This document shows positions 2,111 through 28,955 of a stretch of DNA of 35,177 nt, one piece after another. The position numbers were made by a program, and so were the translations under genes. This DNA is from Microcoleaceae cyanobacterium (GTDB taxonomy: Bacteria; Cyanobacteriota; Cyanobacteriia; Cyanobacteriales; Microcoleaceae), in assembly GCA_051652765.1 (NCBI GenBank), contig JBOFUV010000055.1:1-35177 (forward strand), given 5' to 3'. The notes under the pieces are model-generated. The model was given only the letters and a program-made list of their open reading frames with translations. It was not told the origin of the DNA and ran no database searches. Each line of letters begins with the position of its first letter. Positions within the stretch are counted from its first letter, which is position 1.

Positions 2111-2180
2111 TACAAATCAACCCTTACAAACCAAACCCTATAAACCAAACCCTACAAACCAACCCTTATAAACCAAATCT
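2111..2180. repeat. five tandem imperfect 14-bp units (TAYAAACCAAMCCY)
   Basis: tacaaatcaaccct/tacaaaccaaaccc/tataaaccaaaccc/tacaaaccaaccct/tataaaccaaatct; fills the exoD-permease spacer. Confidence 0.9.
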
Positions 2181-2792
2181 GGATTGAATTGAACGGAGTA
2201 AATCAGGAGCAAAGAGATAAATATAAACGGGTAGACCCACAAACAAAGCTGTATTTAATACCATTAGCACATAGCCAACACAGATTAGTAATCCATCTCC
2301 CTCCATCATGGCGACTGCCATCAAGAAAATCGCGATCGCTGGGGGAAAATTGGAGTAGGGAATCGGAATTGGCAACATCAACATAAGAGCCAACCAAGCC
2401 AAACACAACCCATTGATTCGCCACATATAACCGCCTTTTGTCAGGCTAGAGAGACGAGGGCGAGTGATTTTTTCAAAGGAACGGGTGACTCGTCTCAAGC
2501 CACCTAAAAGCTGAGCTGCAAACTTGGAGGAGAACTGGAAATCAGCCACTTTCTTGGGTAACCAGGGTTCACGCCTTCCCAGAGCCATCTGTAGCGATAG
2601 TACAAGACATCCAGATCCCAAAATTGTCGAAAAGCCAGGGGGCATTGGAAACAGAAATGGCAGGGCAAAGAAACCAATCAATAAACAGAACCCGCGTTCA
2701 GAGGTTTCTGTCAGAATATCTCTGAGGGTTAAGGGATGGTGGGCCAACTGTTCTAGCAGTGTTTCTAGGTCTTTAGAGAACTTCAGGTGCAT
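2166..2792 (-). CDS. exoD: ExoD-family exopolysaccharide biosynthesis membrane protein
   Basis: ERGF.LL...ALPFLFPMPPGFS.ILG, QMALGR..PWLP, LPIP..N..PA and EGDGL motifs. Confidence 0.88.
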   Translation of the reverse strand: MHLKFSKDLETLLEQLAHHPLTLRDILTETSERGFCLLIGFFALPFLFPMPPGFSTILGSGCLVLSLQMALGRREPWLPKKVADFQFSSKFAAQLLGGLRRVTRSFEKITRPRLSSLTKGGYMWRINGLCLAWLALMLMLPIPIPYSNFPPAIAIFLMAVAMMEGDGLLICVGYVLMVLNTALFVGLPVYIYLFAPDLLRSIQSRFGL

Positions 2793-2799
2793 AAGGGGC

Positions 2800-3025
2800 T
2801 CAAAAGCAAAAGGTGAAATACAGTGCCGCTGTCACGAGTTGAACAACCATAACAGGAATTCCGTATCGCAAAAAAGTGTTAGAGGGAACGCCTTGATCAT
2901 GTTGCTCAGAAATTTGGCAGCAACAATGTTTGATGATGCACCCGCCAATATTCTATTTCCACCAAGGGTGGCTCCATCCATCATGGCATAAAATAGAAGC
3001 GAAACCTCAAGGGGACACTGGCTAC
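2800..3025 (-). pseudogene. frameshifted 3' remnant of an ArsB/NhaD (SLC13-like) permease
   Basis: LLFYAMMDGATLGGNRILAGASSNIVAA, then after a 1-nt frameshift near 2915 ISEQHDQGVPSNTFLRYGIPVMVVQLVTAALYFTFCF* (TGA at 2802-2800). The 5' part is absent. Confidence 0.8.
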
Positions 3026-3033
3026 TCACGCCT

Positions 3034-5983: not shown

Positions 5984-6009
5984 TAGTACTTTAAAGAATT
6001 GAATAAATG

Positions 6010-6255
6010 CTAGAGATCATGTTCTGAAGATTTTCCCTGGGTTCCGGATATCTGAAATGATTGCTGACTGAACCAGATTGCAAGAATTCTTGTCTGTTGA
6101 TATTCTGAAAGTCGGTGATAGACATGAAGAATTTCTTCATGGGTAGAATCCACAATTAAAGCTGTCAATTCATGAATCGTTGATGCTTTAAGTAGAGCAG
6201 ACTTCAAGGGTTCAAGAGAGGGTTGCGGGTGTACAAGTTCAAGTTGATGAGACAT
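6010..6255 (-). CDS. small hypothetical protein
   Basis: 81-aa ATG ORF co-oriented between the MAPEG gene and hpsL. Confidence 0.6.
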   Translation of the reverse strand: MSHQLELVHPQPSLEPLKSALLKASTIHELTALIVDSTHEEILHVYHRLSEYQQTRILAIWFSQQSFQISGTQGKSSEHDL

Positions 6256-15617: not shown

Positions 15618-16748
15618 TTGAAGTTGGTGTTGAGGATGCGTTCAGAACCTTCTATAGATGGCCTAGTTTCACAAGGCCGCTCATCTAGTCTGTCGGGTCA
15701 AACCCTATTCTTTTGGATGGGTCTGGGCCTGACGATCTGTTCAGTGATGCTGGACTTGATCACCGGACATTTTTTAGACTGGAGAACTTCTCTATTTGTT
15801 CCGTTTGCTTTGAGTACCCTAGTGTCCTCCTTGGTGGGGTATTGGGCTATCCCTCAGCTCGTTCAGATTAAAGCTGGACAATTTATCCGGGAAGATGGCC
15901 CTCAGACCCACCTGAAAAAGGCTGGAACTCCAACCATGGGCGGCATATTTTTTGTGCCGGTCGGGGTCGGGTTTGCGTTGCTGATGTCACAGTTCAGTCC
16001 GAATGTTGTAGCAGTCTGTGCTTTAACTCTGGCCTATGGGTTTATTGGCTGGATGGATGATTGGCAGATTCTAAGACGTAGGTCGAACAAAGGTATTTCT
16101 CCCCGCATGAAGTTAGGGTTGCAAGTTGGATGTGCAGCCCTGTTTTGTCTTTGGGTAGCCTGGAGTCAGCCCGACGGAATCTCGACGGTTTCCTTGCCCT
16201 TTGGCTTGGTTTTATCCTTGGGGTCACTGTTTTGGCCTCTGGCAGCCTTTGTCTTGGTTGCGGAGAGCAACGCAACTAATTTAACTGATGGTGTAGATGG
16301 TCTGATGGGTGGCTTGGGGGCGATCGCCTTTTTAGGGTTAGGGGCTTACCTCAGTTCAACGTCTCCAGAACTTGCGACCTTTTGTGCTTGTATGTCAGGA
16401 GGTTGCTTGGGGTTTGTGAGTCATAACCGGAATCCCGCCAAGGTATTCATGGGTGATACAGGAGCGTTGGCCCTTGGTGGTGGGTTAGCGGCTGTAGCAG
16501 TACTCAGTAATAGCTTTTGGGTATTGCTGATCATCAGTGGAATTTTTCTAGCTGAAACCCTTTCGGTCATCGCTCAGGTGAGTTATTACAAAGTGACAAA
16601 AGGCCCTGATGGGATTGGTAAGCGATTGTTCAAGATGGCACCCTTACATCATCATCTAGAGCTGTCAGGATGGCCAGAGACTCAAGTTGTTGCTTGGTTT
16701 TATGGAATTAATGCCCTGCTGGTTCTGGGCAGTTGGATGATTCACTAG
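15618..16748 (+). CDS. mraY: phospho-N-acetylmuramoyl-pentapeptide transferase (start possibly ATG 15636 or later)
   Basis: GQFIREDGPQTHLKKAGTPTMGG, GWMDD, SNATNLTDGVDGL, VFMGDTG and MAPLHHHLEL. Confidence 0.98.
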   Translation: MKLVLRMRSEPSIDGLVSQGRSSSLSGQTLFFWMGLGLTICSVMLDLITGHFLDWRTSLFVPFALSTLVSSLVGYWAIPQLVQIKAGQFIREDGPQTHLKKAGTPTMGGIFFVPVGVGFALLMSQFSPNVVAVCALTLAYGFIGWMDDWQILRRRSNKGISPRMKLGLQVGCAALFCLWVAWSQPDGISTVSLPFGLVLSLGSLFWPLAAFVLVAESNATNLTDGVDGLMGGLGAIAFLGLGAYLSSTSPELATFCACMSGGCLGFVSHNRNPAKVFMGDTGALALGGGLAAVAVLSNSFWVLLIISGIFLAETLSVIAQVSYYKVTKGPDGIGKRLFKMAPLHHHLELSGWPETQVVAWFYGINALLVLGSWMIH

Positions 16749-16886: not shown

Positions 16887-17393
16887 CTAAATCATTCGAT
16901 AGATAACAGCCCCATCTCGCTCCCGGTTTCCCACTTGGATCAAGTCTTCTCGTTGCAATTCCGCTAAGATTTGGCGAATCTCTGCGGGGTCACACCCTGT
17001 TTCCAATACACAATCGGCCATAGTCATTTCCCCTTGAGCTTTAGCTAGTTTGAGGAGTTGGATTTTAGTTTGGTCAAGATTAAGTTGAGGAATTTTTGGG
17101 TCTTGGCTTTTTGAGTGTTTTCTAGCTTGACTCACGGCACGGGTATTCTCAACAGCAGTTCCGACACCGTAGAGGAACATCATTCCAGTAAAAAAGTCTT
17201 CATCATCTTCTAGGGAAGGCTCACCTAGATAACACAGGGCTGTGACTCCTAGGAAAATGCTCAATGTTGTGAATAAGGCTTTATAGCGTCCTGTATAGAT
17301 ATAACCAAACAAAGGGCTAAGACCAGTCAACATACCTGTTGCCCATATATTTTTCTGAGCGAGTTGTTGAGTTCTTTCTGAGTTTTGAGTCAT
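16887..17393 (-). CDS. membrane protein with TM2-like N-terminus and C-terminal winged-helix-like domain
   Basis: Hydrophobic N-terminal half (PLFGYIYTGRYK); C-terminal GEMTMADCVLETG...LQREDLI.VGNR..DGAVIYR. Confidence 0.7.
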   Translation of the reverse strand: MTQNSERTQQLAQKNIWATGMLTGLSPLFGYIYTGRYKALFTTLSIFLGVTALCYLGEPSLEDDEDFFTGMMFLYGVGTAVENTRAVSQARKHSKSQDPKIPQLNLDQTKIQLLKLAKAQGEMTMADCVLETGCDPAEIRQILAELQREDLIQVGNRERDGAVIYRMI

Positions 17394-17522
17394 AGGAGCA
17401 GCTCTTCTAAGCTTTATCGGTCTACGGGTTGATCAAGAAGAATTCTTGAATTATGCCTTTCTTAACCATAGCTTGTCTCTTCAGCTTGATCTACCTGATT
17501 TCGGATTCAGATCCCTGAACGT

Positions 17523-17540
17523 TTTACAATCCATTACAAT
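17523..17540 (+). promoter_or_regulatory. HLR1-like (RpaB) direct repeat
   Basis: TTTACAAT-CC-ATTACAAT versus consensus KTTACAWW-N2-KTTACAWW, one mismatch. Confidence 0.45.
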
Positions 17541-17581
17541 AAGCGTTGCAACTTTTTATGGATTCATCGAAGTTATAACTC

Positions 17582-18313
17582 TTGCAGCCTGCTTATTTTC
17601 TGGTTTCCCATGGCAGTCGTGACCCCCAGCCCCAGCTTGCGTTACAACAGTTAGCCAAGCATCTGGAACATCGGATTGTCACTCTTTCCTCTAGAGTTCA
17701 ACGTGTTCCAGTGATTGGGACAGGAACTCTGGAATGTGCTGCCCTTTCACTCAGCCAACAAATTCAAGCCTTTAGCCAATCTATCGCTCCATTCAAGTTA
17801 AACACTGTTAAGATTTTGCCATTGTTCCTATTTCCAGGCGTTCATGTTCAGGAAGATATTCCGACAGAGGTGATTGCTGCTAGTCAAGGGCTTGACGTGG
17901 ATATCAGTCTAGAACTTCTCCCCTACCTCGGCTCTAAAACCGCTCAAATCACTCAAACTTTACAAGCTCAGATGCAGGTTGTGAGTATGGATGCCTGGAT
18001 TCTGATGGGGCATGGCAGTCGTCGCTTGCAAGGGAATCAACCGATGGAACTCCTGGCCACTCAGCTTGCAGCGATCGCCGCCTACTGGTCAATGGCCCCC
18101 AGTTTAGACGCACAAGTTCAGCAGTTAGTTCAGGCTGGGGTGCAAAAAATCGGCATTTTTCCTTATTTCATTTTTTCGGGGGGAATTACCCAGGCAATAC
18201 AACAATCTGTTACTGACTTTGCCCAACAGTTTCCCCAGGTGCAGTTTCATCTGGCAGAGCCGTTAGATCAAAGTGGTGCATTGCTTGATCTGACTTGGGA
18301 AATGTTGCAGTAG
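17582..18313 (+). CDS. cbiX: sirohydrochlorin chelatase, CbiX/SirB family
   Basis: SHGSRDP, PLFLFPGVHVQEDIP, a second GHGSR, and PYFIFSGG; TTG start. Confidence 0.87.
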   Translation: MQPAYFLVSHGSRDPQPQLALQQLAKHLEHRIVTLSSRVQRVPVIGTGTLECAALSLSQQIQAFSQSIAPFKLNTVKILPLFLFPGVHVQEDIPTEVIAASQGLDVDISLELLPYLGSKTAQITQTLQAQMQVVSMDAWILMGHGSRRLQGNQPMELLATQLAAIAAYWSMAPSLDAQVQQLVQAGVQKIGIFPYFIFSGGITQAIQQSVTDFAQQFPQVQFHLAEPLDQSGALLDLTWEMLQ

Positions 18314-18314
18314 C

Positions 18315-19256
18315 TCACCTTAGCAGCGTACCTGCTCCATGTACCTGCTCCATAAAAAATTCCTCTAGGGTTTTCCGAGCCAATTTAATTGAAATTAGCT
18401 GAGCATTCATCGGGTCTAAACTGTTGATCAGGGACTGATAATTACCTGTGACATGACCTTGCCAGAATTCGTGTTCAAATGTCACGTCGGGCATGTGCTG
18501 CTTGAGTTGCTCTGGGTCGCCGCCTTTCCCTCTAATAGCATAGGTTTCAGTCACTCCCAATAATTCATTCAAAGACCCGCTACAAATGAGTTTTCCCTGA
18601 TCTAAAAGAGCCACGCGATCACAAATTTTTTCGACATCCGACAGAACATGACTATTAAAAAATACGGTTTTTTTCTGAGCTTTAAGGGACAAAATAATCT
18701 CTCGAATTTGATACCGCCCAACCGGATCAAGTCCCGACATCGGTTCATCAAGGAAGACAATTTCTGGGTCATTAATCAGCGCTTGAGCCATCCCCACCCG
18801 TTGCACCATTCCTTTAGAATACTGACGAATTTGTTTCTGAATTGCTGTTTTTTTATCCAAACCTACCCAATCCAAAAGATCAGGAATACGTTGTGTTTGA
18901 ATAGATTTAGGAATTTGAAACAGCCCCGCAGAGAACTCTAGAAACTCCCAAGCTGTTAATCTTTGGTAAAAGTAAGGATTCTCAGGCAAGTAACCAATAA
19001 ATTGTTTGACTTGGCGATCGCCGAGAGGTTTTCCCTGAAGTGATCCGGTTCCAGAAGTTGGATGCACAATGCCTAGTAAAACTTTTAATAACGTGGTTTT
19101 CCCCGCCCCATTTCGCCCTAAAAGCCCAAAGGTTTCTCCCTGATTAACCGTTAATGTACAGCCTTTAAGAGGTTCAATGGTTTGAGTCCGCCAAAACCCA
19201 GTTCGGTAGACCTTCCCTAAATTATGGGTTTGAATCACAGGCTGAGATTCAGACAT
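18315..19256 (-). CDS. ABC transporter ATP-binding protein (likely start ATG 19256)
   Basis: Walker A GRNGAGKTT, signature YSKGM, LDEPMSGLD and NSH. Confidence 0.95.
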   Translation of the reverse strand: MSESQPVIQTHNLGKVYRTGFWRTQTIEPLKGCTLTVNQGETFGLLGRNGAGKTTLLKVLLGIVHPTSGTGSLQGKPLGDRQVKQFIGYLPENPYFYQRLTAWEFLEFSAGLFQIPKSIQTQRIPDLLDWVGLDKKTAIQKQIRQYSKGMVQRVGMAQALINDPEIVFLDEPMSGLDPVGRYQIREIILSLKAQKKTVFFNSHVLSDVEKICDRVALLDQGKLICSGSLNELLGVTETYAIRGKGGDPEQLKQHMPDVTFEHEFWQGHVTGNYQSLINSLDPMNAQLISIKLARKTLEEFFMEQVHGAGTLLR

Positions 19257-19257
19257 A

Positions 19258-20586
19258 TTAGTTTGTCCTCCCATCAGGAACAACACTTAACATCTTAACC
19301 ACTTCACGGGCAATAAAATTTGATAAAATTTCTTCTCCCTTGGGATTGTAGTGACAGCAATTATCAATATAAACAGGTTCTTTAATTGCATCAAAAACAT
19401 TAACAGCATTTAAGATATTAACTTGATTGTTTGCCAATTCCTCAAGATGTTCCAACAACAAGGGATAGCCAATTTCAATCCCCTCTTCATAAGGGCTGTC
19501 CTGAATAAATGCAATTTTTCTTTCTTCAGAGCCAAATTCTCGCTTTGTTTTAAAATATTGGTTGGGTTGTAAAACATGCAAATAGGGAATCTGATTCTGA
19601 GATAGTGTTTGATGCATTAACCTTGAAGTTTTCATCCAGTAATTCGCAGCCTGCTGATAAAACTCTCCATCTGGAATATCTGGATCTTGGGGATAGAAAA
19701 AAATCACGCTTTCTGGATTGTCATCAGCAGAGGAATCAGACTTCTCAAATCTCTGCAAATTCTGGCGATATTGCTTAACTAAAGTCTGAACTTTCAAAGC
19801 ATTCATTGCATAACAAGAAGCCAGGTTGCAATCTTTCAATGTTTCCAGAGAATGGCTCAACTGATTTTTATTTTCTTTGATATTTAACAAGGTTTTCAGA
19901 GCTTTTGTCGATAGACTATTATTGGCAAGACTTGTTAACGGTTCAACATGATAAGCACTGGGCATCGTGAAATCAAGGCCGCGTTCACGATTTAAAGTGA
20001 TCAGGGCAACTTCATTAAAACCATCTAGGTTAATCACCAGATCAAATTCTTGACCCACAGACAGCATATAGTTCAGAACCAAGAGTTGCTGGGGCTGTTT
20101 ATACCCTCCAATTGCCAACGGTAAAATCACAATTTCTCTGTTTTGAAGTCCTGGAACTTTCTGAAGTGCTTGCTCTAAAACTTTGTTCTGGATTTCATAA
20201 ATCGCATAGTTAGAGGCAACTGAACCGCCAAGAATTCCAACTATGAATTGATTTGTATTTGTTCTTTTAAAAGGGTAGTCATGAGGCGAAATAAAACCAT
20301 AGTTATTATATTCAAACCCAGGGCGAAAATCCGGGCCAGGTTTCTGTACAAATCCAAAAAAGGGATGCAACCGTTCAACAACAGTTTCTCCGAAGCGAAC
20401 CCCCTCCAGGTTAATGCCTAAATCCTGATAATCTTCTGTTTTTTGACGAGTATAAAACAACTGTTTATGCTTAACAAAATAGAACGCAAGGGAACCGAGT
20501 TCTAGAAAAGCAAATAAGAGAAGAAGGTTAATTACAGCAGTCTGTAAGCCCGACTTTGCTCTCTGAAACCACACTGATTTTTTCAT
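19258..20586 (-). CDS. membrane-anchored divergent SGNH-fold protein
   Basis: N-terminal TM; ILGGSVA (block I), GGYKQPQQL, DGFNE and YIDNCCHYNPKG (block V). Confidence 0.7.
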   Translation of the reverse strand: MKKSVWFQRAKSGLQTAVINLLLLFAFLELGSLAFYFVKHKQLFYTRQKTEDYQDLGINLEGVRFGETVVERLHPFFGFVQKPGPDFRPGFEYNNYGFISPHDYPFKRTNTNQFIVGILGGSVASNYAIYEIQNKVLEQALQKVPGLQNREIVILPLAIGGYKQPQQLLVLNYMLSVGQEFDLVINLDGFNEVALITLNRERGLDFTMPSAYHVEPLTSLANNSLSTKALKTLLNIKENKNQLSHSLETLKDCNLASCYAMNALKVQTLVKQYRQNLQRFEKSDSSADDNPESVIFFYPQDPDIPDGEFYQQAANYWMKTSRLMHQTLSQNQIPYLHVLQPNQYFKTKREFGSEERKIAFIQDSPYEEGIEIGYPLLLEHLEELANNQVNILNAVNVFDAIKEPVYIDNCCHYNPKGEEILSNFIAREVVKMLSVVPDGRTN

Positions 20587-20604
20587 GGCTTAACTCCCCC
20601 CAAT

Positions 20605-21879
20605 CTATTTGTTTGATATATCTTGAGTAGCAACTTTCTGGCAGACCTGATCCGCTAGCAACTCTCCAGCAACTTGATTCCCTGCCACATTCCAATGTCC
20701 TTCACAAGGCAAGGCATTCTCGAATCCATGTAAACATTCTCCCCGTTTTTCTGCTTGTTCAAGCAATGGTTCTGCTAATCGAAAGACTGGAATTCCTTCC
20801 TGCTTTCCAAACTCTGCAATCCGCTGATCTGGGTAAAATAAGTTTTCAATATTATACTCTTCCATAAATTCTTTTCGTTTCTTTGATTTAGGATTCACTT
20901 GATAGGAATCACTGATCGTAACAACCAGAAAGTCTACTCCTTGTGCAGTGACTTCATCTCGCATCAATTTGATTAATCCTTCTGTGACAGCCCAAGCGGT
21001 CTCCCAGTTTTCATCAGGGGGTTCTTTGTAAAAATTAGTATTAATTTCTTCATAATCTTCCTGGTATTGGCGCTGCTTTGCGGTGATTTCTGCCTGTCGA
21101 ATGAGCTGGAGAATACGCGATCGCTCCACTAGTCCTTGAGGCAATCGATCGACTTGGGCAAAGGCATAATAATCCCGTGCTTTTGGTGATAAGTTGCGAA
21201 AGGAATAATCAATCATCCATTCATCAGTTTGATGACTCGTTTGATTGCCGATTTGACTGCCGATTTGACTGCCGATTTGATTGGAGTTGTGAAGGGAAAA
21301 ATAAGGTCGCAAATGATCATGTTCTAGGGGTTTATAATTGTTGCGAATGTCATTGCCGGGATAGAATCCTAGAATCACTAAATCAGGAGAAAATTGCCAG
21401 ACATGATGCCGTAAGGTCATTAATTCTTGAGCAGTTCCATACCCTTGAACCCCAAAGTTTAACACTTCAACGTTCTGTCCTTTCAAAGCTGAACAATTGG
21501 CGAGCAATTTCTCCATCACCGCCGTTGCCGTTTGTTCTTGAGGAACATGCAGGGCTTCAATAAAAGAATCCCCTAAAACTGCGACTCGAAATGTGTTTTC
21601 TGGCTTAATCATTGTTCGTTCGCGATCGCGAAATCCAGCACTATTCATCTGAATTTCTGAGACCAATCCTTCCCCTACCCAGACTGTTTTTGCGTTAGGT
21701 TTAGGAGCCCAACCTCGGTTTGGATCTTTCACGGTGTAGGCCAGGGTTTCTGATTCTGGGTCAGGTGGCGGGGGATAGGAAACGCCAGCCAATCGCAAGC
21801 CTATTTCCCCCACAGCAATTCCGAAGCCTAGACTTCCTAACAGTAACCCTAAATTAGCAACCCAAGGCTTAAATTTCAT
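20605..21879 (-). CDS. membrane-anchored SGNH/GDSL protein (AlgX/AlgJ/SxtL-like)
   Basis: N-terminal TM; NSAGFRD, VLGDSF, NFGVQGYG, GND and EGHWNVAGN. Confidence 0.88.
   Translation of the reverse strand: MKFKPWVANLGLLLGSLGFGIAVGEIGLRLAGVSYPPPPDPESETLAYTVKDPNRGWAPKPNAKTVWVGEGLVSEIQMNSAGFRDRERTMIKPENTFRVAVLGDSFIEALHVPQEQTATAVMEKLLANCSALKGQNVEVLNFGVQGYGTAQELMTLRHHVWQFSPDLVILGFYPGNDIRNNYKPLEHDHLRPYFSLHNSNQIGSQIGSQIGNQTSHQTDEWMIDYSFRNLSPKARDYYAFAQVDRLPQGLVERSRILQLIRQAEITAKQRQYQEDYEEINTNFYKEPPDENWETAWAVTEGLIKLMRDEVTAQGVDFLVVTISDSYQVNPKSKKRKEFMEEYNIENLFYPDQRIAEFGKQEGIPVFRLAEPLLEQAEKRGECLHGFENALPCEGHWNVAGNQVAGELLADQVCQKVATQDISNK
21240..21284. repeat. in-frame 12-bp tandem repeat (NQIG/SQIG) inside the SGNH gene
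   Basis: tttgattgccga/tttgactgccga/tttgactgccga/tttgattgg. Confidence 0.9.
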
Positions 21880-21892
21880 ACGGTTATTTCAA

Positions 21893-23104
21893 TTAAAACT
21901 TTTCCACTATTTCACAAAGTTTTTGGGTAATCAATTCTCCAGCAAATTCGTGTCCCTGGGGGTTCCAATGTCCTCCACAGGGAACAGCATTAGGAAAACC
22001 GTGCAGACAGCTTTGAGTCTGTTCACTATAGCTTTGAAACGGTTTAGCTAGGTCTAGAACTGGAAAATTTTCTTGTTCGCCAACCTGTTTTAATCGTTCA
22101 TTGGAGTAGAACAAGTTGTTAATTTCATAGTCTTTCATAAAGGAGTTGCGAATTTCTGATTTGGGATGAACTTGAATCGGATCACCAATTGTCACGAGGA
22201 GAAACCGAGCCCGGTTTTGTTGAGCTTCCGTGTTCATCTCAGTGATTAATGCCTCAGTAATTTGCCAAGCCTCTTTCCACGCGGCATCCTCGGGTTCTTG
22301 AAAATTTTGAGCATTAAGCTGATTCAAGTGGTCTAAAAGATGACGTTTTCGATTTTCTAATTCTACTTTTCTGATCACTTGCAATAATCTAGAATGATTC
22401 ACCAACCCACTGGGAAGTTTGTCAACGGTTGCAATCCAGTAACGGTCACTTTGTTCACTAGTTAACTCCCGAAATGAATGGTCTAAAACCAGGGTTCCAT
22501 TCTGATCGGTAAAAAATGGGCGATAATGATTGCTTTCTAATATTTTAGAATTATCAATCACATCATTTCCAATAAAAAAAGCCAACACTATAACATCAGG
22601 ATTATAGTTCCAAACTTCTTGTCTTAATGTAATTAACTCTTGGGCTGTGCCATAGCCATCCACACCAAAATTCAGCACTTCTACAGTTTTTCCTTGAACA
22701 TTAGAACAACTTTTCAAGCGAGTTTCAATCACGGATGTGTAGTTTTGGGCCATTGAAACTTGCGAGGCCAATGTAAAGGAATCCCCCAAAACAGCAACTC
22801 GGATTGTATTTTCGGGTTTGGTTTTAGCATAGGGGCGATCGCGCCAGCCATCTTGATTGATTTCCACGTAAGATCGCCCCTCCTGTTCCCACCAGCCCTT
22901 GGCCCCAGGCAGATTTGCCCACCCCCGATCTGGATGGGAGATGGTAAAGAAAGAAGGAGAAAATAGAGCATGGGCTGTTTTAGACTGTTGCGGCAAGCCC
23001 TCTACTCCTCCTAGGCGCAGACCGATCTCGCTGATCAAAACCCCAAAACTTAAACTGCCAAGCACTAAACCAGTGTTGACGGCCCAAATTTTCACTTTGC
23101 TCAT
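21893..23104 (-). CDS. membrane-anchored SGNH/GDSL protein, paralog of the neighbouring gene
   Basis: NQDGWRD, VLGDSF, NFGVDGYG, GND and GGHWNPQGH. Confidence 0.88.
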   Translation of the reverse strand: MSKVKIWAVNTGLVLGSLSFGVLISEIGLRLGGVEGLPQQSKTAHALFSPSFFTISHPDRGWANLPGAKGWWEQEGRSYVEINQDGWRDRPYAKTKPENTIRVAVLGDSFTLASQVSMAQNYTSVIETRLKSCSNVQGKTVEVLNFGVDGYGTAQELITLRQEVWNYNPDVIVLAFFIGNDVIDNSKILESNHYRPFFTDQNGTLVLDHSFRELTSEQSDRYWIATVDKLPSGLVNHSRLLQVIRKVELENRKRHLLDHLNQLNAQNFQEPEDAAWKEAWQITEALITEMNTEAQQNRARFLLVTIGDPIQVHPKSEIRNSFMKDYEINNLFYSNERLKQVGEQENFPVLDLAKPFQSYSEQTQSCLHGFPNAVPCGGHWNPQGHEFAGELITQKLCEIVEKF

Positions 23105-23107
23105 TGA

Positions 23108-23272
23108 CTAGAACAGGGTGTAAATAAATGGCGCAATCACTGAACCTTGACTCAGGACAATCAATGCTCCTAGCAATACTAAAGTAATGATTAGAGGCAA
23201 CAACCAATACTTTTTGCGTTCCTTCATGAACGCCCACAGGTCTTTTAAAAAATCCAATGCTGCGTCAAACAT
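23108..23272 (-). CDS. SxtK-like (DUF5989) small membrane protein, 54 aa, absent from the ORF track
   Basis: Manual translation gives MFDAALDFLKDLWAFMKERKKYWLLPLIITLVLLGALIVLSQGSVIAPFIYTLF*. Its ATG overlaps the upstream TGA (TGATG). Confidence 0.92.
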   Translation of the reverse strand: MFDAALDFLKDLWAFMKERKKYWLLPLIITLVLLGALIVLSQGSVIAPFIYTLF

Positions 23273-23682
23273 CAGAACGGACGCTCCATACTTTCTCGAG
23301 GTCTAGCTTGACTCTCAACCCGGTAGGTTGTGAGGTTGGGACTGAGCTTTCGCCGCATTGCATCAGAACCAAACCAACGTTTGATCAATCCCATGGGAGC
23401 CATCATAGCGTAAAACACAACTCCCAATAGAATCCGAGTGTTGATCCAACCCAAGACAAGCCCCACCCGCATCCAGCCGTGATAAACCGGATCAAGGGTT
23501 TTGGGAATGATTAAGGCCCAAACCACCAGAACTGACCCCACCATCCAGGGCCAAGTTGGGGGAGGCCAATGGCGAAAAATCAACGGGAGTAAAAAACCAA
23601 ACAATCCAGCACAAATTGCCCCAGTGACGAGGCCAAATTCGCGCAATCCTTTTTCATCGAGCTTGGGAATATCGTGGTTCAT
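23272..23682 (-). CDS. SxtJ-family membrane protein
   Basis: LREFGL, WMRVGLVLGWINTRILLGVVFY..MAPMG, D.MRRK and MERPF. Confidence 0.88.
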   Translation of the reverse strand: MNHDIPKLDEKGLREFGLVTGAICAGLFGFLLPLIFRHWPPPTWPWMVGSVLVVWALIIPKTLDPVYHGWMRVGLVLGWINTRILLGVVFYAMMAPMGLIKRWFGSDAMRRKLSPNLTTYRVESQARPRESMERPF

Positions 23683-23716
23683 TGTCAGTTGATCTGTCAG
23701 TTAATCTGTTAGTTAA
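23683..23716. repeat. 12-bp tandem repeat TGTYAGTTRATC, about 3 copies
   Basis: Read directly, abutting the sxtJ-like start codon. Confidence 0.8.
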
Positions 23717-23760
23717 GTAGTAGGAAGTTGGGGAATTAGGGTTCACCATACTCTAATCTG

Positions 23761-25728
23761 TTAATCCAACTCAAATTCATTTTTCCAGGATTCGTCTTTT
23801 TCCCAGGGGGTTTGGTTAGTTTTTGCCAGCAAGTAATTCTCCAACACCAAGTAATCCATCTCCGTTCGCATGAAACAACGGTAGGCATCTTCTGGAGTAC
23901 AAACAATCGGTTCGCCGCGAACGTTGAAGGAGGTGTTCACAATCACCCCACAGCCCGTTTGCTGTTCAAAGTGTTGAATCAGGCTGTGATAGCGGGGATT
24001 GGTTTCCTTGTGAACGGTTTGAATCCGCGCCGAATAATCCACATGGGTAATCGCCGGAATTTCCGAACGGGGGACATTTAGCCTTTCAATCCCGAACAGA
24101 TGTTCTTGTTCCGCTGTCATCGGAATTCGCAAGTCTTGCTTGACAGGAGCCACTAGTAACATGTACGGACTGGCACTGTCCATCTCAAAGTAGTCTGAAA
24201 CCCGTTCTGCTAGAACTGATGGCGCAAACGGACGGAAGGATTCCCGATACTTAATCTTGAGGTTCATCACCGACTGCATCTGGGTGTTGCGGGGGTCGCC
24301 AATAATCGACCGTCCTCCCAAAGCGCGGGGGCCAAACTCCATCCGCCCCTGGAACCAACCAACAACGTGACCTTGGGCCAGAATTTCTGCCAGTTGAGGC
24401 ATCAATTCACTATCCTCAAGGCGAACGTATTCTGCCGCCGCCGAGTCTAAGTAGTCCTGAATTTCGGTATCTGTGAACCGTGGCCCCAGATATCCGCCGC
24501 GCATTTGATCAAGGGGGATTGAAACCGCTGGAATTGTTCGCGGCAAGGTTGCTACGGTGCTTTCTACGGTGCGTTCAGGGTCGATTCTGTCAGTGCTGAT
24601 TGCTGTAGATTGAATCAGCTCTTGTTCTGCCGCTTGAGACAAGCCTTCAATCCGACGCGGGCGATCGCAATATTGATACCAAACTGCCAACGCTGCCCCC
24701 AGGGCACCTCCCGCATCCCCCGCCGCAGGCTGAATCCAAATCTCCTGGAACGGGCCTTCCCGTAAAATGCGGCCATTGGCGACACAGTTCAGGGCAACAC
24801 CACCCGCCATACAGAGGTAATCCACCTTGAGTTCCTGCTGAACACTACGGGCCAACCGCAGGACAACTTCTTCGGTCACGACCTGAATCGAAGCGGCAAT
24901 ATCCATCTCCCGCTGGGTCAGGGAACCTTCGGCTTTCCGAGGTGGGCCGCCAAAGAGTTGATCGAACTTCTGATTTGTCATGGTCAAGCCGATGGCGTAG
25001 TTGAAATATTCCATATTCAACCGGAAGGTGCCATCATCTTTCAGGTCAATGAGATGAGTCAGAATTGTGTCAACGTACTTCGGTTCCCCGTAGGGCGCTA
25101 GGCCCATCAGTTTGTATTCTCCAGAGTTGACCTTGAACCCGGTGTAGTAGGTAAAGGCTGAATACAGCAAACCGAGGGAATGGGGAAAGTCAATTTCCCA
25201 AACAGGGGTTAACGAGTTCCCCTCCCCTAACCAAACTGTAGTAGTGGCCCATTCACCGACCCCATCCAAACACATCACTGCCGCTCGCTCAAATGGGCTG
25301 GGAAAGAAAGCAGAGGCCGCGTGGGACTGATGATGTTCGGTAAACATCAATTTTGGGAGCTTTGACTTTTTCACCCCCAACAGTTGGGATAATTCCCGTT
25401 TTAATACTGTTTTAAGATAAAGCTTTTCCTTCAACCAAATAGGCATGGCTGCCATGAACGAGCGAAATCCCCGTGGCGCGTAGCTGAGATAGGTTTCGAG
25501 CAACCGTTCAAATTTCACCAATGGCTTGTCGTAAAAGACAATGTAATCCAGGTCAAGCAGGGTAATGCCTGCTTCCTGAAAACAGTAGCGAATGGCATTG
25601 GCGGGAAAACGAGCATCATGTTTTTTGCGGGAAAATCGCTCTTCTTGAGCCGCAGCAATAATTGCCCCATCCTGAACCAGAGCAGCAGCACTGTCATGGT
25701 AGTAGGCTGAAATTCCAAGTATATTCAT
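23761..25728 (-). CDS. O-carbamoyltransferase, NodU/CmcH/TobZ family (SxtI-like)
   Basis: HDSAAAL, EERFSRKKH, EHHQSHAASAF, DGVGE, EYKLMGLAPYG, GGVALNC, EFGPRALG, RESFRPFAPS and NTSFN. Confidence 0.96.
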   Translation of the reverse strand: MNILGISAYYHDSAAALVQDGAIIAAAQEERFSRKKHDARFPANAIRYCFQEAGITLLDLDYIVFYDKPLVKFERLLETYLSYAPRGFRSFMAAMPIWLKEKLYLKTVLKRELSQLLGVKKSKLPKLMFTEHHQSHAASAFFPSPFERAAVMCLDGVGEWATTTVWLGEGNSLTPVWEIDFPHSLGLLYSAFTYYTGFKVNSGEYKLMGLAPYGEPKYVDTILTHLIDLKDDGTFRLNMEYFNYAIGLTMTNQKFDQLFGGPPRKAEGSLTQREMDIAASIQVVTEEVVLRLARSVQQELKVDYLCMAGGVALNCVANGRILREGPFQEIWIQPAAGDAGGALGAALAVWYQYCDRPRRIEGLSQAAEQELIQSTAISTDRIDPERTVESTVATLPRTIPAVSIPLDQMRGGYLGPRFTDTEIQDYLDSAAAEYVRLEDSELMPQLAEILAQGHVVGWFQGRMEFGPRALGGRSIIGDPRNTQMQSVMNLKIKYRESFRPFAPSVLAERVSDYFEMDSASPYMLLVAPVKQDLRIPMTAEQEHLFGIERLNVPRSEIPAITHVDYSARIQTVHKETNPRYHSLIQHFEQQTGCGVIVNTSFNVRGEPIVCTPEDAYRCFMRTEMDYLVLENYLLAKTNQTPWEKDESWKNEFELD

Positions 25729-26129
25729 GCACGTCTCCTCACGAAATGCCCAGTCCGCTAGGCGAAATTGTTAAAAATATCTTCAGATTATAACGGAATC
25801 GTTGCAACTACTGCTTTATAAAATGTACACAATCTATTGCAGAGCAACATTTTGATCTGGACTTCCTGCATTTTCTCGGACTGTTGACAGACCCAATTAG
25901 ATGGGCTTTACACCGTAGAGTTAAGGCTTTGCTTGAATGCAAAACGCTCTTGAAGTGTTGCGAGTTTCCTAGCTAAATTTAGTTTTTGCGGCTGAGGACA
26001 TCGCCATAAATCATGCTGTGAATCAGATTTAATCCTGTTTAAAAAGCCCAGAGAGTAACCCGCGTTTTGCTCAAAAGGTTTAGGATACAAGGAAAGACTT
26101 TATTTCTGGCAAGACAACTATATCTATAT

Positions 26130-28955
26130 ATGTTTGCATCCCTATCAGAGCGGCGTATGCACTGGGTTCGGTGGATCTTAACCCTGGGATGGCTGCTCAT
26201 CATTGCATCGTTATTTTATGATCCCTGGACATCAGCCCTCACAGAACCGAATCATCCCTGGAGCCCTTTGCGCTTACCAGATGGCTGCATTAAACTCCAG
26301 GGCAAGTGTTTGGTAGAACAACCCTATCCCCTAGGCACTACTTTATTTTGGGGTGCGGTTGTCCCTTCAGCCATTTTCATCCTGTTGGTCTTGGGTCATG
26401 AGGTGTGGCGGCGTATTTGTCCCCTTTCCTTTCTCTCGCAAATTCCTCGGGCTTTGGGGATACAGCGGCAATTCAAACGGGAAAACCCGACAACAGGAAA
26501 GGTACGCTACGAACTAGCTAAGGTCAAACCTGATTCCTGGTTGGGGAGAAATTATCCCTATGTTCAATTTGGTTGGTTGTTTGTGGGATTGTGCGGGCGG
26601 ATTTTATTTTTTAATGCGGATCGCTGGGTTTTAGCCGGATGGTTGCTGGGTACAATTGCGATCGCGATCGCGGTTGGCTATTTCTATGGCGGCAAATCCT
26701 GGTGTAATTACTTTTGCCCGATGGCTCCAGTACAGCGCATTTACAGTGAGCCGGGGGGGCTCTTCAGCAGTAAGGCCCACATGAGTAACCAACTGATTAC
26801 TCAATCCATGTGCCGAACCGTATTGCCGGATGGGAAAGAGCAAAGTGCCTGTGTGGCTTGTCAAAATCCTTGTATTGATATTGACTCTGAACGATCCTAC
26901 TGGGATGGGTTGAATCAATCGGAAGATGCTTTCCTGCGGTATGGTTATGTGGGTTTAGTGATTGGTTATTTTGTCTATTACTATCTCTATGCTGGGAGTT
27001 GGGATTATTATTTTTCGGGAGCATGGGCGCGAGATCCGGATCAGTTAGCCTCCTTGTTCAGTCCTGGATTGTATTTATTTGGACAAGCGATTAACATCCC
27101 TAAACTCGTTGCTGTTCCGTTAATCTTGGGGGGTTTTACGGCGATCGGCTATTACGTTGGCATCTGGATTGAACAACGGGCCAAAGCTTATAGCCGTCGT
27201 TATCATCCTAATTTGAGTTCAGAAATCATTCGCCATCGGATTTTTGCCCTTTGTACTTTTGGGATTTTTAACTTCTTTTTCATCTTTGGGGGTCGTCCTT
27301 TAATTGGATTACTGCCGTTGTGGGTGCAATATGCCTATGATATGGGCTTAGTCTTGCTGAGTACCCTCTGGATCGACAAAATCTGGCAGCGGAGTCCTGA
27401 CTTGTATTCTCGAGAAAGTTTAGCGAGTCGGTTCCGCAAACAACTGGAGAAATTGCAGCTGAATGTGGCTCAGTTTTTGGAAGGACGTTCCCTCAGCGAT
27501 TTGAACACCCATGAAGTGTATGTCCTGGCCAAGGTTCTACCCGGTTTCACCCGAGAGAAGCGGCACGAGGCTTACAAGGAAGTTGTGCGAGAGGCGCTGG
27601 AACAGGGCTATGTCAACTACTCCAGTAGTTTAGATGTGTTGCTGCAACTCCGCCAAGAATTGGGGATCACCGATGATGAGCATCGGCAAGTCTTGGATGA
27701 GCTAGGAATTGAAGATCCAGAGCTGTTGAATCCTGATCGCCAGCGCAGTTTAGAAAATCAAATTCGCTTGAGTGGATATCGCAAATCCCTGGAACGGCTG
27801 ATGTTACTCCAGAGCAAGCAAGCTGAGAATCCAGCCAATGCTTTTGATATGTTACTGACCGAAAATTCTGCCGAGGTCAGGAATTTGCGTCGCCAATACT
27901 CGATCACTGCCCAAGAAGAAGGCTGGATTCTGAGTGGTCTGTCTCCTGAAGTGGGTAACATCCGTAGGGCGGAATTTTTGCTGTCCCAACTTCCAGATTT
28001 GATCTTTTGCTATCGAGCCTTGAATCAACCAATGCTGAAAGAGCATCGGGCGATGTCAATGCTGCTGCGAGATAGTATTCATCACAAGAAAGAACTGATG
28101 GTGCGAACTATTTTAGAAACCTTGGCCATGCTGAAAAATGATTCTGCTGCCATTCTTTTGGCCCAAGATTTGGGGCGATTGGCCCCGGCAGTCCTCACAG
28201 AGCTATTTGAGACTGAGAATTGGAGCACTCGGATTCATCCAGAAGTGGCGCAATATCTCAATCAACCCCAAGGCCAACAGAGTGTTTGTTCCTTGGATTA
28301 TTCAGCAGAAGAAATCCTGAGCTATCTTGAGCCCTTACTTCAAGATCAAAATCCGCTGATTCAAATGGCCTGCCTCTACCTGACCGCCCAACTCAATCTG
28401 AACAAAAGTCAGGCGATCGCCCGTAATTATCAAAGTACCCAAAGTTCTTCGTTCCTCAAAGAAACGACTGAGAAACTGCTCTCCCTATCCGATGCCCCTC
28501 CTGCCCTAAGCGAGTTTCCCAAGCTAGAGAAGGTCGTTTATTTATTCAATAGCGATTTCTTTCACCGAATGCACAACGAAACCTTAATCACTCTGGCAGA
28601 TCGGGCGGAAATCAGAACCTATGGAATGGGTGATTTCATTACAGAAGCAGGAGATACCTGCCGGGAATTGCTGCTGCTCGTCTCAGGAGAGGCCAAAATT
28701 CACTTTCATCTGCCTAACGGTGAGGTGCGAACCGAAAATCTCCATGCGGGTCAGACCTTGGATGAGTTGGAAGTCTTGGCCCATACGAACTCGCAAAATA
28801 CGATTATTGCCGATAGCGACGTGACTCGAATTTTGGCCGTTCCTGTTGATACTTTTGATGATCTGCTGGAACTCGATCCTGATTTTGCTCGCCGGGTTTT
28901 AGAACTAGAGAGTCGTCAACTTCAGCGATTGATGCGATCGCTGCAAACAACATAG
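26130..28955 (+). CDS. polytopic membrane protein with 4Fe-4S-binding motifs, helical/HEAT-like region and C-terminal cNMP-binding domain (likely start ATG 26130)
   Basis: WRRICPL, WCNYFCPM and CVACQNPC; C-terminal ITEAGDTCRELLLLVSGEA...GQTLDELEVL. Confidence 0.8.
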   Translation: MFASLSERRMHWVRWILTLGWLLIIASLFYDPWTSALTEPNHPWSPLRLPDGCIKLQGKCLVEQPYPLGTTLFWGAVVPSAIFILLVLGHEVWRRICPLSFLSQIPRALGIQRQFKRENPTTGKVRYELAKVKPDSWLGRNYPYVQFGWLFVGLCGRILFFNADRWVLAGWLLGTIAIAIAVGYFYGGKSWCNYFCPMAPVQRIYSEPGGLFSSKAHMSNQLITQSMCRTVLPDGKEQSACVACQNPCIDIDSERSYWDGLNQSEDAFLRYGYVGLVIGYFVYYYLYAGSWDYYFSGAWARDPDQLASLFSPGLYLFGQAINIPKLVAVPLILGGFTAIGYYVGIWIEQRAKAYSRRYHPNLSSEIIRHRIFALCTFGIFNFFFIFGGRPLIGLLPLWVQYAYDMGLVLLSTLWIDKIWQRSPDLYSRESLASRFRKQLEKLQLNVAQFLEGRSLSDLNTHEVYVLAKVLPGFTREKRHEAYKEVVREALEQGYVNYSSSLDVLLQLRQELGITDDEHRQVLDELGIEDPELLNPDRQRSLENQIRLSGYRKSLERLMLLQSKQAENPANAFDMLLTENSAEVRNLRRQYSITAQEEGWILSGLSPEVGNIRRAEFLLSQLPDLIFCYRALNQPMLKEHRAMSMLLRDSIHHKKELMVRTILETLAMLKNDSAAILLAQDLGRLAPAVLTELFETENWSTRIHPEVAQYLNQPQGQQSVCSLDYSAEEILSYLEPLLQDQNPLIQMACLYLTAQLNLNKSQAIARNYQSTQSSSFLKETTEKLLSLSDAPPALSEFPKLEKVVYLFNSDFFHRMHNETLITLADRAEIRTYGMGDFITEAGDTCRELLLLVSGEAKIHFHLPNGEVRTENLHAGQTLDELEVLAHTNSQNTIIADSDVTRILAVPVDTFDDLLELDPDFARRVLELESRQLQRLMRSLQTT

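Follow-up and report, generated by a model that had tools for sequence, protein, structure and literature searches.

Tyrosine residues near a protein's C-terminus can carry acyl groups on their way to bacterial wall polymers. In the Dlt system, DltB moves D-alanine onto the invariant Tyr of a C-terminal FXYXXF motif in DltX, and that Tyr donates the group to a serine of DltD (PMC12148441). Other membrane-bound O-acyltransferases (MBOATs) bear the same hexapeptide on two extra helices, and PatA auto-acetylates its own Tyr; the motif reads FIYANF in N. gonorrhoeae PatA, and an acetylated FIYANF peptide acts as a donor for PatB (PMC12148441). According to the accessible portion of that account, the evidence for tyrosine acyl shuttles is so far confined to MBOAT- and AT3-dependent acylation of wall polymers. 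The gene clusters for saxitoxin (sxt) contain two short genes, sxtJ (405 bp) and sxtK (165 bp), both given as 'unknown' in the accessible text, along with sxtL, a GDSL-type gene of about 1.28 kb whose product is a candidate decarbamoylase (PMC2679770). Here we analyse a gene of the sxtK kind, found at positions 23108..23272 on the minus strand of a 35,177-nt stretch of DNA from a Microcoleaceae cyanobacterium (contig JBOFUV010000055.1 of assembly GCA_051652765.1; the whole stretch is called the window below). Its product, SxtK, ends in FIYTLF, and an original prediction, made from the letters of the window, had taken it for a carrier of carbamoyl groups that works in the manner of DltX. We propose, tentatively and at somewhat less than an even chance, that SxtK is indeed a DltX-like carbamoyl shuttle that is free of any MBOAT, in which Tyr-51 would take up a carbamoyl group and pass it to the serine of an SGNH protein.

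SxtK is a DUF5989 microprotein with a predicted outward-facing tail

Translation of 23108..23272 (minus strand, 165 bp) yields the 54-residue sequence MFDAALDFLKDLWAFMKERKKYWLLPLIITLVLLGALIVLSQGSVIAPFIYTLF, followed by a TAG stop codon at 23108..23110. From its N-terminus onwards, the protein comprises an amphipathic segment, an RKK patch, one transmembrane (TM) helix, a Gly-Ser (GS) hinge and the tail APFIYTLF-COOH. This bears out the description from which the original prediction set out, namely a single-TM peptide of 54 residues with a basic patch before the TM segment and FIYTLF at the C-terminus. The terminal hexapeptide F49-I-Y51-T-L-F54, which we read from the sequence as a candidate carbamoyl-accepting shuttle motif, is encoded by 23111..23128 on the minus strand, with Tyr-51 at 23120..23122 (TAC on that strand) and Phe-54 at 23111..23113.

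By its Pfam match, the 54-residue protein is a member of the DUF5989/SxtK family (PF19451; E 4e-27, 94.5 bits, cut-off 27). Residues 7-54 of SxtK cover profile positions 2-49 of 49, reaching the last position of the model, and the match was reproduced by a search of the genome itself. The family numbers 3506 representatives at 50% clustering (E <= 0.001), and the closest relatives of SxtK bear the names of Planktothrix, Microcoleaceae, Trichodesmium and other filamentous cyanobacteria. Weak matches to Pfam DUF5976, which may be a related microprotein family, are given by 12 of 63 DUF5989 members (best E 0.0013) and cover the N-terminal W-x-F...RKK region.

Five Lys or Arg residues lie ahead of the hydrophobic stretch of the window's SxtK (K10, K17, R19, K20 and K21) and none lies behind it. 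The same bias was found in a sample of 80 genomic loci, which are the best of some 10,000 matching stretches estimated in one-genome-per-species data; these loci were collected by a scan with two patterns, one of which included the C-terminal motif, and some of them are cut by contig ends. In all 80, the C side has no Lys or Arg, and the N side has 4.6 on average and never fewer than 3. By the positive-inside rule, this charge asymmetry predicts that the N-terminus of SxtK is cytoplasmic and that the 12-residue tail lies at the outer face of the membrane, which agrees with the orientation put forward originally. Long DUF5989 proteins and open frames were considered as natural fusions that would fix the topology, and were rejected as mis-called upstream starts or antisense frames. 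One protein of 150 residues (P0218) may be a true SxtJ-SxtK read-through.

The terminal tyrosine is invariant across the family

We compared 269 DUF5989 database proteins, made up of 119 close homologues and 150 representatives, and Tyr-51 is retained in every one. Of these proteins, 249 terminate exactly in F/L-[IVN]-Y-[TSA]-[LIV]-F/P, and the remaining 20 (P0131, P0141, P0143, P0149, P0156 and 15 others) have unrelated residues beyond the motif. The extensions look like sequencing-error read-through, other genetic codes or mis-called stops; if any extended homologue is real, a free C-terminus is not obligatory. Among the query and the 150 representatives, K21, W23, P26, P48 and Y51 are found in 151/151 sequences and F54 in 146/151. 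Across a set of 63 sequences, A47, P48, F49, Y51 and F54 are invariant, and the tail is the best-conserved part of SxtK.

In the locus sample, the encoded protein ends in APF[IV]Y[TSA][LI]F in 80 of 80 cases, a count that is partly circular because one of the scan patterns contained the motif. A sample that depends less on the motif was obtained by a hidden Markov model (HMM) search for DUF5989 in 301 genomes of another phylum. The family scored above the cut-off in 115 of these genomes, with a bimodal distribution of scores (60 bits and above, or 22 bits and below). The Tyr is kept in all 17 of the lowest-scoring true members, namely the 16 weakest from this search plus a second, divergent Nitrospira copy. 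Sixteen of the 17 end in x-x-Y-x-x-F, and the other, which ends in FIYAILLE and has an in-frame TGA, is probably a broken copy. The original prediction had named invariance of this Tyr across DUF5989 as a check, and it held in each set of sequences compared. The divergent Nitrospira copy (54 bits; genome G005, to which locus L018 belongs) ends in PAIYSIF, and the same genome has an MBOAT gene about 5.5 kb from its main carbamoyltransferase-SxtJ-SxtK-SGNH locus (G005 features at C10:67779-67913 and C1:335828-336418).

The rarity of such an ending was gauged from the 4133 ATG-to-stop open reading frames (ORFs) of at least 100 residues in the window's own genome. A [FY]xYxxF ending occurs in just one of them, against 0.31 expected from composition, and this sole ORF is the genome's only MBOAT. 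It is an AlgI-type protein of 490 residues, encoded on the plus strand at 1096..2568 of contig C140 (genome G000, locus L082), and ends in …SPEGSLPYIYFDF (…LPYIYFDF). Its tail has GS a few residues ahead of the motif and a preceding Pro, as in SxtK. Judged by this survey of ORF endings, the SxtK tail is not a chance occurrence in the window's genome. That F-x-Y-x-x-F is a C-terminal motif of both DltX and MBOATs, on which the original prediction drew, is stated in the accessible part of PMC12148441.

SxtK lies in a tightly packed carbamoyltransferase operon

The operon runs on the minus strand and comprises, in order and tightly packed, genes for a carbamoyltransferase, SxtJ, SxtK, three SGNH proteins (SGNH 1, SGNH 2 and SGNH 3) and an ABC-transporter ATPase. 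The carbamoyltransferase (23761..25728, minus strand, 655 aa) is of the NodU/TobZ type, with Pfam matches to Carbam_trans_N (E 1.3e-124) and Carbam_trans_C (E 1.4e-77). TobZ/NodU-family carbamoyltransferases use ATP and carbamoyl phosphate; for this reason, and because it has no TM segment, the enzyme is presumed to be cytoplasmic. SxtJ (23272..23682, minus strand, 136 aa; Pfam SxtJ, E 1.7e-14) has three predicted helices and a basic C-terminal tail. Translational coupling of SxtJ and SxtK is seen in the 1-nt overlap of the SxtJ stop with the SxtK start (TGATG), and the start of SGNH 1 lies 3 nt past the SxtK stop.

All three SGNH proteins have an N-terminal TM anchor. SGNH 1 (21893..23104, minus strand, 403 aa) matches Pfam Lipase_GDSL (E 7e-07), and SGNH 2 (20605..21879, minus strand, 424 aa) matches Lipase_GDSL_2 (E 5.9e-05), is 47% identical to SGNH 1 and scores 435 bits against the SGNH family profile. 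SGNH 3 (19258..20586, minus strand, 442 aa) is a divergent paralogue in which GGS replaces GDS and the His is kept; it has no Pfam match, and its membership of the SGNH family comes from an iterated HMM (299 bits to the family profile).

No MBOAT is needed for the module: none lies in the operon or elsewhere in the window, and none was found in four of five other DUF5989-positive genomes, the completeness of which is not known. The single MBOAT of the window's genome sits on another contig and has its own tail. The ABC-transporter ATPase (18315..19286, minus strand, 323 aa; Pfam ABC_tran, E 2.3e-31) is DrrA/NodI-like, and its start overlaps the end of SGNH 3. The ATPase gene may belong to the operon and lies outside the conserved core, as a relative is found in only 5 of the 80 loci. 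It has no permease gene for a neighbour; CbiX, on the opposite strand, comes next. The window holds no other saxitoxin-type (sxt) biosynthetic genes. A scan of 17300..26300 for promoters and terminators gave counts at the level of shuffled sequence and was uninformative. Elsewhere in the window are genes for a WecA/MraY-type glycosyl-phosphate transferase (15618..16748, plus strand) and an ExoD exopolysaccharide protein (2166..2792, minus strand).

Anchored SGNH proteins and SxtJ as candidate partners

The SGNH partner family was gathered by iterated HMM searches and examined in an alignment of 70 members. Ser109 and His379 are kept in 69/70, Gly150 in 62/70 and Asn180 in 60/70, and 69/70 have an N-terminal hydrophobic anchor. 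The catalytic domains of SGNH 1-3 are predicted to face outwards, since their N-termini ahead of the anchor helix are K-rich. Just past the TM anchor, many partners have the sequence E-x-G-x-R (E26 in 38/70, G28 in 35/70, R30 in 34/70), and this stretch may serve as a contact site at the outer face of the membrane; P0006-type paralogues carry S and Y instead of these residues.

An AlphaFold model of SGNH 1 (m32aeea67603a) has a mean predicted local distance difference test score (pLDDT) of 95.6 and consists of a helix at 2-31, a small beta unit and an SGNH core with a long helical insertion. Compared with the PDB by Foldseek and VIA-align, the model resembles SGNH esterases, the best match being CgnD (8a2n; Z 22.7, root-mean-square deviation 3.2, 242 residues aligned) and the next entry reaching Z 17.1. 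DltD and PatB are absent among the 50 best structural matches, which does not exclude a likeness to them. In Pfam, 13 of the 70 partners match ALGX, the AlgX acetyltransferase domain (best E 4.4e-11); the window's three proteins are not among these, and have matches to generic GDSL models or no Pfam match. The family profile matches chains of AlgX, AlgJ and B. cereus PatB1 in the PDB (E 1.4e-8 to 2.7e-5), over the half containing the His block only, and a PDB search with only the C-terminal third of SGNH 1, as a single sequence, gave no relevant match. The ALGX and profile matches give the family some affinity to transferases working behind MBOATs, and make a thin case for a transferase rather than a hydrolase.

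SxtJ is conserved to a far lesser degree than SxtK. Across 73 sequences, W70 and P96 are the only near-invariant residues, and L77, R102, G105, D107 and Y120 are kept in at least 80%. Its AlphaFold model (pLDDT 89.8) has helices at 10-36, 44-58 and 60-103, with a disordered basic tail. There is no conserved membrane His, Ser or Asp in SxtJ and nothing like the catalytic histidine of MBOATs, and the protein is read here as a putative scaffold.

The module is linked across distant lineages

SxtJ is present in 76 of the 80 loci and a carbamoyltransferase in 74, in the gene orders CJK, JKC and CKJ (C for carbamoyltransferase, J for SxtJ, K for SxtK). The loci span Cyanobacteria, Nitrospira, Pelagibacteraceae, other Alpha-, Beta- and Gammaproteobacteria, Desulfobacterota, Bacteroidota-type lineages and Gemmatimonadota. 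In other genomes, the module has genes for glycosyltransferases, sugar-nucleotide dehydratases and polysaccharide export on its flanks. By HMM, an SGNH-family gene adjoins SxtK in 47/80 loci, which left 33 loci with 111 neighbouring genes; a Pfam search of these neighbours added two more (L022 and L047), giving at least 49/80. In the 31 loci that remain, most of the neighbours seen are genes for housekeeping or glycan synthesis, or ORFs that fall in no family. Five genomes without an adjacent SGNH gene were searched whole, and four of them have strong family members elsewhere (225 bits in one genome; 141, 130 and 78 bits in another; 128 and 115 bits in a third; 82 bits in the fourth).

As a phylogenetic-profile control, the same 81 cyanobacterial genomes were searched with DUF5989 and with the SGNH alignment. 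DUF5989 is found in 10 of these genomes, from 8 genera. Full-length SGNH matches of at least 130 bits were seen in 7 of the 10 DUF5989-positive genomes (5 of the 8 genera) and in none of the 71 negative genomes, among which the best score was 77.5 bits; because the genomes include relatives and so are not independent, the association, although strong, is no formal test. In two further DUF5989-positive cyanobacteria, a weaker SGNH member lies 0.35 kb and 2.4 kb, respectively, from SxtK. The DUF5989-negative cyanobacteria carry a different paralogue of about 320 residues, which matches the first half of the SGNH profile only. The window's genome has three more paralogues of the SGNH subfamily (C71:62534-64908 and C133:58798-59796), scoring 162, 138 and 84 bits, one of them with an in-frame TAG.

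A proposed carbamoyl shuttle

In the mechanism that we propose, a cytoplasmic carbamoyltransferase would first make an activated carbamoyl group. The amphipathic N-terminal helix and RKK patch of SxtK would remain on the cytoplasmic side, close to the carbamoyltransferase and to SxtJ's basic tail, and its GS hinge and 10-residue tail would sit at the outer face of the membrane. The three helices of SxtJ would form a membrane scaffold that replaces the MBOAT of the Dlt, Pat and Alg systems. In a second step, Tyr-51 of SxtK would become an aryl carbamate (Tyr-O-carbamate) as an activated intermediate; in a third, the serine of an SGNH protein would attack this intermediate and be carbamoylated in its turn. 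Serine hydrolases are known to be carbamoylated by aryl carbamates. In the last step, the carbamoyl group would pass to an acceptor hydroxyl outside the cytoplasm, on a surface polymer or some other molecule. The acceptor is probably a glycan, because glycosyltransferase, sugar-nucleotide and polysaccharide-export genes are neighbours of the module in several genomes; the WecA/MraY-type transferase and ExoD genes of the window point faintly the same way.

Loading of the Tyr could be achieved in two ways. The tail might thread back down a groove between SxtJ and SxtK, and the 8 residues from the GS hinge to the Tyr, which span about 28 Å if extended, are long enough to dip back into the membrane. 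Alternatively, the tail might be loaded in the cytoplasm before it is translocated. It is possible, although we hold this with a little more reserve, that the relay is a widespread one, in which carbamoyl groups would cross the membrane without an MBOAT, SxtK would be held by SxtJ, and SGNH enzymes would modify surface glycans or other extracytoplasmic acceptors.

A number of findings count against a shuttle. The membrane-crossing step is unexplained, because nothing in the module resembles the MBOAT tunnel and SxtJ is without catalytic-type residues. Enzymes carbamoylated on serine tend to turn over slowly, a hurdle that any such transferase would have to clear, and the nearest solved fold of SGNH 1 is the hydrolase CgnD, not DltD or PatB. 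By HMM and Pfam searches of the neighbours, 31 of the 80 loci have no SGNH gene next door; the fifth of the genomes searched whole gave weak SGNH matches only (31 bits), and one DUF5989-positive cyanobacterium carries a generic SGNH paralogue only. Orphan copies of DUF5989, with neither carbamoyltransferase nor SxtJ nearby, are found on one viral contig and in one bacterial genome. The viral orphan (locus L113 on an IMG/VR contig, 5998..6150, plus strand) encodes 50 residues ending in APFIYTLF amid small phage-type genes, with neither carbamoyltransferase nor SxtJ in the 6 kb to either side. The bacterial orphan (locus L110 of genome G117, at about 2877..3029, plus strand) ends in APFIYALF, lies between two FtsX/MacB-like permease genes of the opposite strand, and has no carbamoyltransferase or SxtJ within the 4 kb examined.

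Nor is homology to the known shuttles detectable. None of 63 DUF5989 members matches Pfam DltX (PF12459) at E values up to 10, in a test where HMMER filters drop most matches above about 0.1, and SxtK compared with the MBOAT tail of its own genome gave a BLASTP E of 33 and an hhalign probability of 0.7%. The window's genome has no DltX match. A search of the PDB with the DUF5989 profile returned no DltX chain and chance TM matches only (E 0.16 or worse), and a protein-atlas look-alike search with SxtK gave no usable match. By none of these Pfam, PDB-profile, BLASTP, hhalign and look-alike tests is SxtK a DltX homologue. Compared with DltX and MBOAT tails, as had been suggested at the outset, DUF5989 shows no detectable homology, and the likeness is one of hexapeptide and architecture. 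Because no test gave DltX homology, the protein is filed here as DUF5989, perhaps DltX-like in its working.

The carbamoyl carrier of the original prediction has come through in part. Its motif, the invariance of its Tyr, its free C-terminus, its charge bias and the anchored SGNH subfamily with Ser and His all speak for it; no homology to DltX is detectable, the module has no MBOAT-like conduit, and not every locus has an SGNH gene next door. Its core, a putative carbamoyl-Tyr intermediate that would be handed to the SGNH serine, is drawn by analogy with the known shuttles.

Alternative explanations

SxtJ and SxtK might instead act as a membrane tether or assembly factor, holding the carbamoyltransferase at the inner face to carbamoylate a lipid-linked or membrane-bound cytoplasmic substrate. 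The conserved tail would then be a packing or stability element, and the SGNH proteins would be separate esterases or decarbamoylases, as proposed for SxtL. NodU/TobZ-family carbamoyltransferases act directly on substrate hydroxyls, which suits a tether, as does the hydrolase found as the nearest solved fold of SGNH 1. The linkage of carbamoyltransferase, SxtJ and SxtK holds in the 31 loci that have no SGNH neighbour, in SxtK the tail is equalled in conservation by the amphipathic N-terminal helix with the RKK patch, and SxtJ has a basic tail of cytoplasmic type with conserved R102, G105, D107 and Y120. However, a tether has no need of an invariant Tyr four residues from a free C-terminus that lies across the membrane, and the tail is the best-conserved part of the protein. 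The co-occurrence of a dedicated SGNH subfamily with DUF5989, even where the two are unlinked, and the gap of only 3 nt between the SxtK stop and the SGNH 1 start also argue against it. With the evidence on both sides considered, a tether seems to us unlikely.

We think it improbable that the likeness to a shuttle motif is coincidental, with DUF5989 being a subunit of an unrelated membrane process such as product export with the ABC ATPase. Six residues are too short for alignment statistics, and, with protein families numbering in the tens of thousands, chance will make a few conserved C-termini match FxYxxF (about 7e-5 per ORF by composition); an ABC ATPase does also close the operon. Against this, the coincidence would have to cover not only the hexapeptide, but a one-TM microprotein, a C-out tail, a preceding Pro and GS hinge, a donor enzyme inside and an anchored, AlgX-like SGNH protein outside, and an ABC ATPase is found in just 5 of the 80 loci.

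The C-termini of outer-membrane proteins that are sensed by PDZ domains have the form Y-x-F, and an outer-membrane-protein beta-signal or PDZ ligand of this type was ruled out for SxtK by its Y-x-x-F spacing. Very improbable, finally, is a tail that acts non-covalently as a recognition peptide to activate, inhibit or position either the SGNH enzymes or a protease of PDZ or tail-specific type: it is a free, hydrophobic and invariant C-terminus on the predicted periplasmic side, and orphan copies such as that on the viral contig would fit lone action on a host enzyme, but the pairing with a carbamoyltransferase in 74/80 loci would be left unexplained, and the same motif is a covalent carrier in MBOATs and DltX, as described in the accessible part of PMC12148441.

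Novelty and implications

The original prediction had supposed the idea to be undescribed, and our literature search, from which most subscription journals lay outside, found no account of an SxtK-type carbamoyl shuttle. Within the same scope, it found nothing on DUF5989 by name, nothing that joins SxtK with DltX, and nothing on a carbamoyl acyl shuttle, on carbamoyl-tyrosine or on a system of carbamoyltransferase, SGNH protein and microprotein. If the carbamoyl shuttle is true, the shuttle principle would extend to carbamoyl chemistry and to a membrane machine without an MBOAT, which would be a third route, beside MBOAT and AT3, for exporting an activated acyl-type group. Functions would be gained for SxtJ, SxtK and their GDSL partner, the first two of which have been 'unknown' since 2008-2009, going by the accessible text of PMC2679770. 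DUF5989 and SxtJ would become directly testable proteins.

The module is common, with an estimated 10,000 or so matching stretches, 115 positive genomes out of 301 in the sample of one phylum and 10 out of 81 among cyanobacteria. It is found in ecologically dominant groups, including Pelagibacteraceae, Prochlorococcus/Synechococcus, Trichodesmium and Nitrospira. A true shuttle would suggest that SAR11-type, picocyanobacterial and Nitrospira genomes encode an unrecognised surface modification, and such hidden surface carbamoylation would bear on phage adsorption, grazing and polymer chemistry.

Comparison with known systems

The crocagin pathway is the source of CgnD (8a2n), the best structural match of SGNH 1, and its cluster also encodes a carbamoyltransferase, CgnI (PMC10070186). 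CgnD is described as a soluble dimer and a very slow leader peptidase, and the accessible part of the source mentions no SxtJ- or SxtK-like genes for the pathway (PMC10070186). The likeness is not matched at the sequence level, as CgnD is not among the 48 PDB matches of the SGNH family profile.

With the sxtI-sxtJ-sxtK-sxtL genes of saxitoxin clusters, in which sxtI encodes the carbamoyltransferase, the module shares the same set of genes and the same sizes, and the window's sxtK is likewise 165 bp long. No SxtL-named protein is found among the 120 best relatives of SGNH 2, a check that was made by name only. The module differs from the saxitoxin clusters in its distribution, which takes in numerous lineages that are not toxic (Pelagibacteraceae, Nitrospira, Bacteroidota-type genomes and picocyanobacteria).

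The PatA/PatB and AlgI/AlgJ/AlgX systems share with the module a terminal motif of the same kind. The MBOAT of the window's genome ends in LPYIYFDF and SxtK in APFIYTLF, with P-[FY]-I-Y-x-x-F common to both. Some of the SGNH partners match ALGX, and their family profile matches AlgX, AlgJ and PatB1. The differences are that the tail of SxtK is borne by a free-standing protein of 54 residues and not by an acyltransferase, and that the donor is not an acyl-CoA.

The DltX/DltB/DltD system is likewise close in architecture. Like DltX, as characterised in the accessible part of PMC12148441, SxtK is a one-TM microprotein with a C-terminal F-x-Y-x-x-F in which the Tyr is invariant, and its tail lies outside by prediction. 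Cytoplasmic activation of the donor, presumed in the case of the module, is common to both systems, and each ends with a protein of SGNH fold on an N-terminal TM anchor (PMC12148441). In contrast to the Dlt system, the SxtK module has no MBOAT and no carrier protein, and the three-helix SxtJ is its second membrane partner. Its donor enzyme is a carbamoyltransferase dependent on ATP and carbamoyl phosphate, the group transferred would be carbamoyl and not an aminoacyl ester, and the system occurs in Gram-negative phyla and in cyanobacteria.

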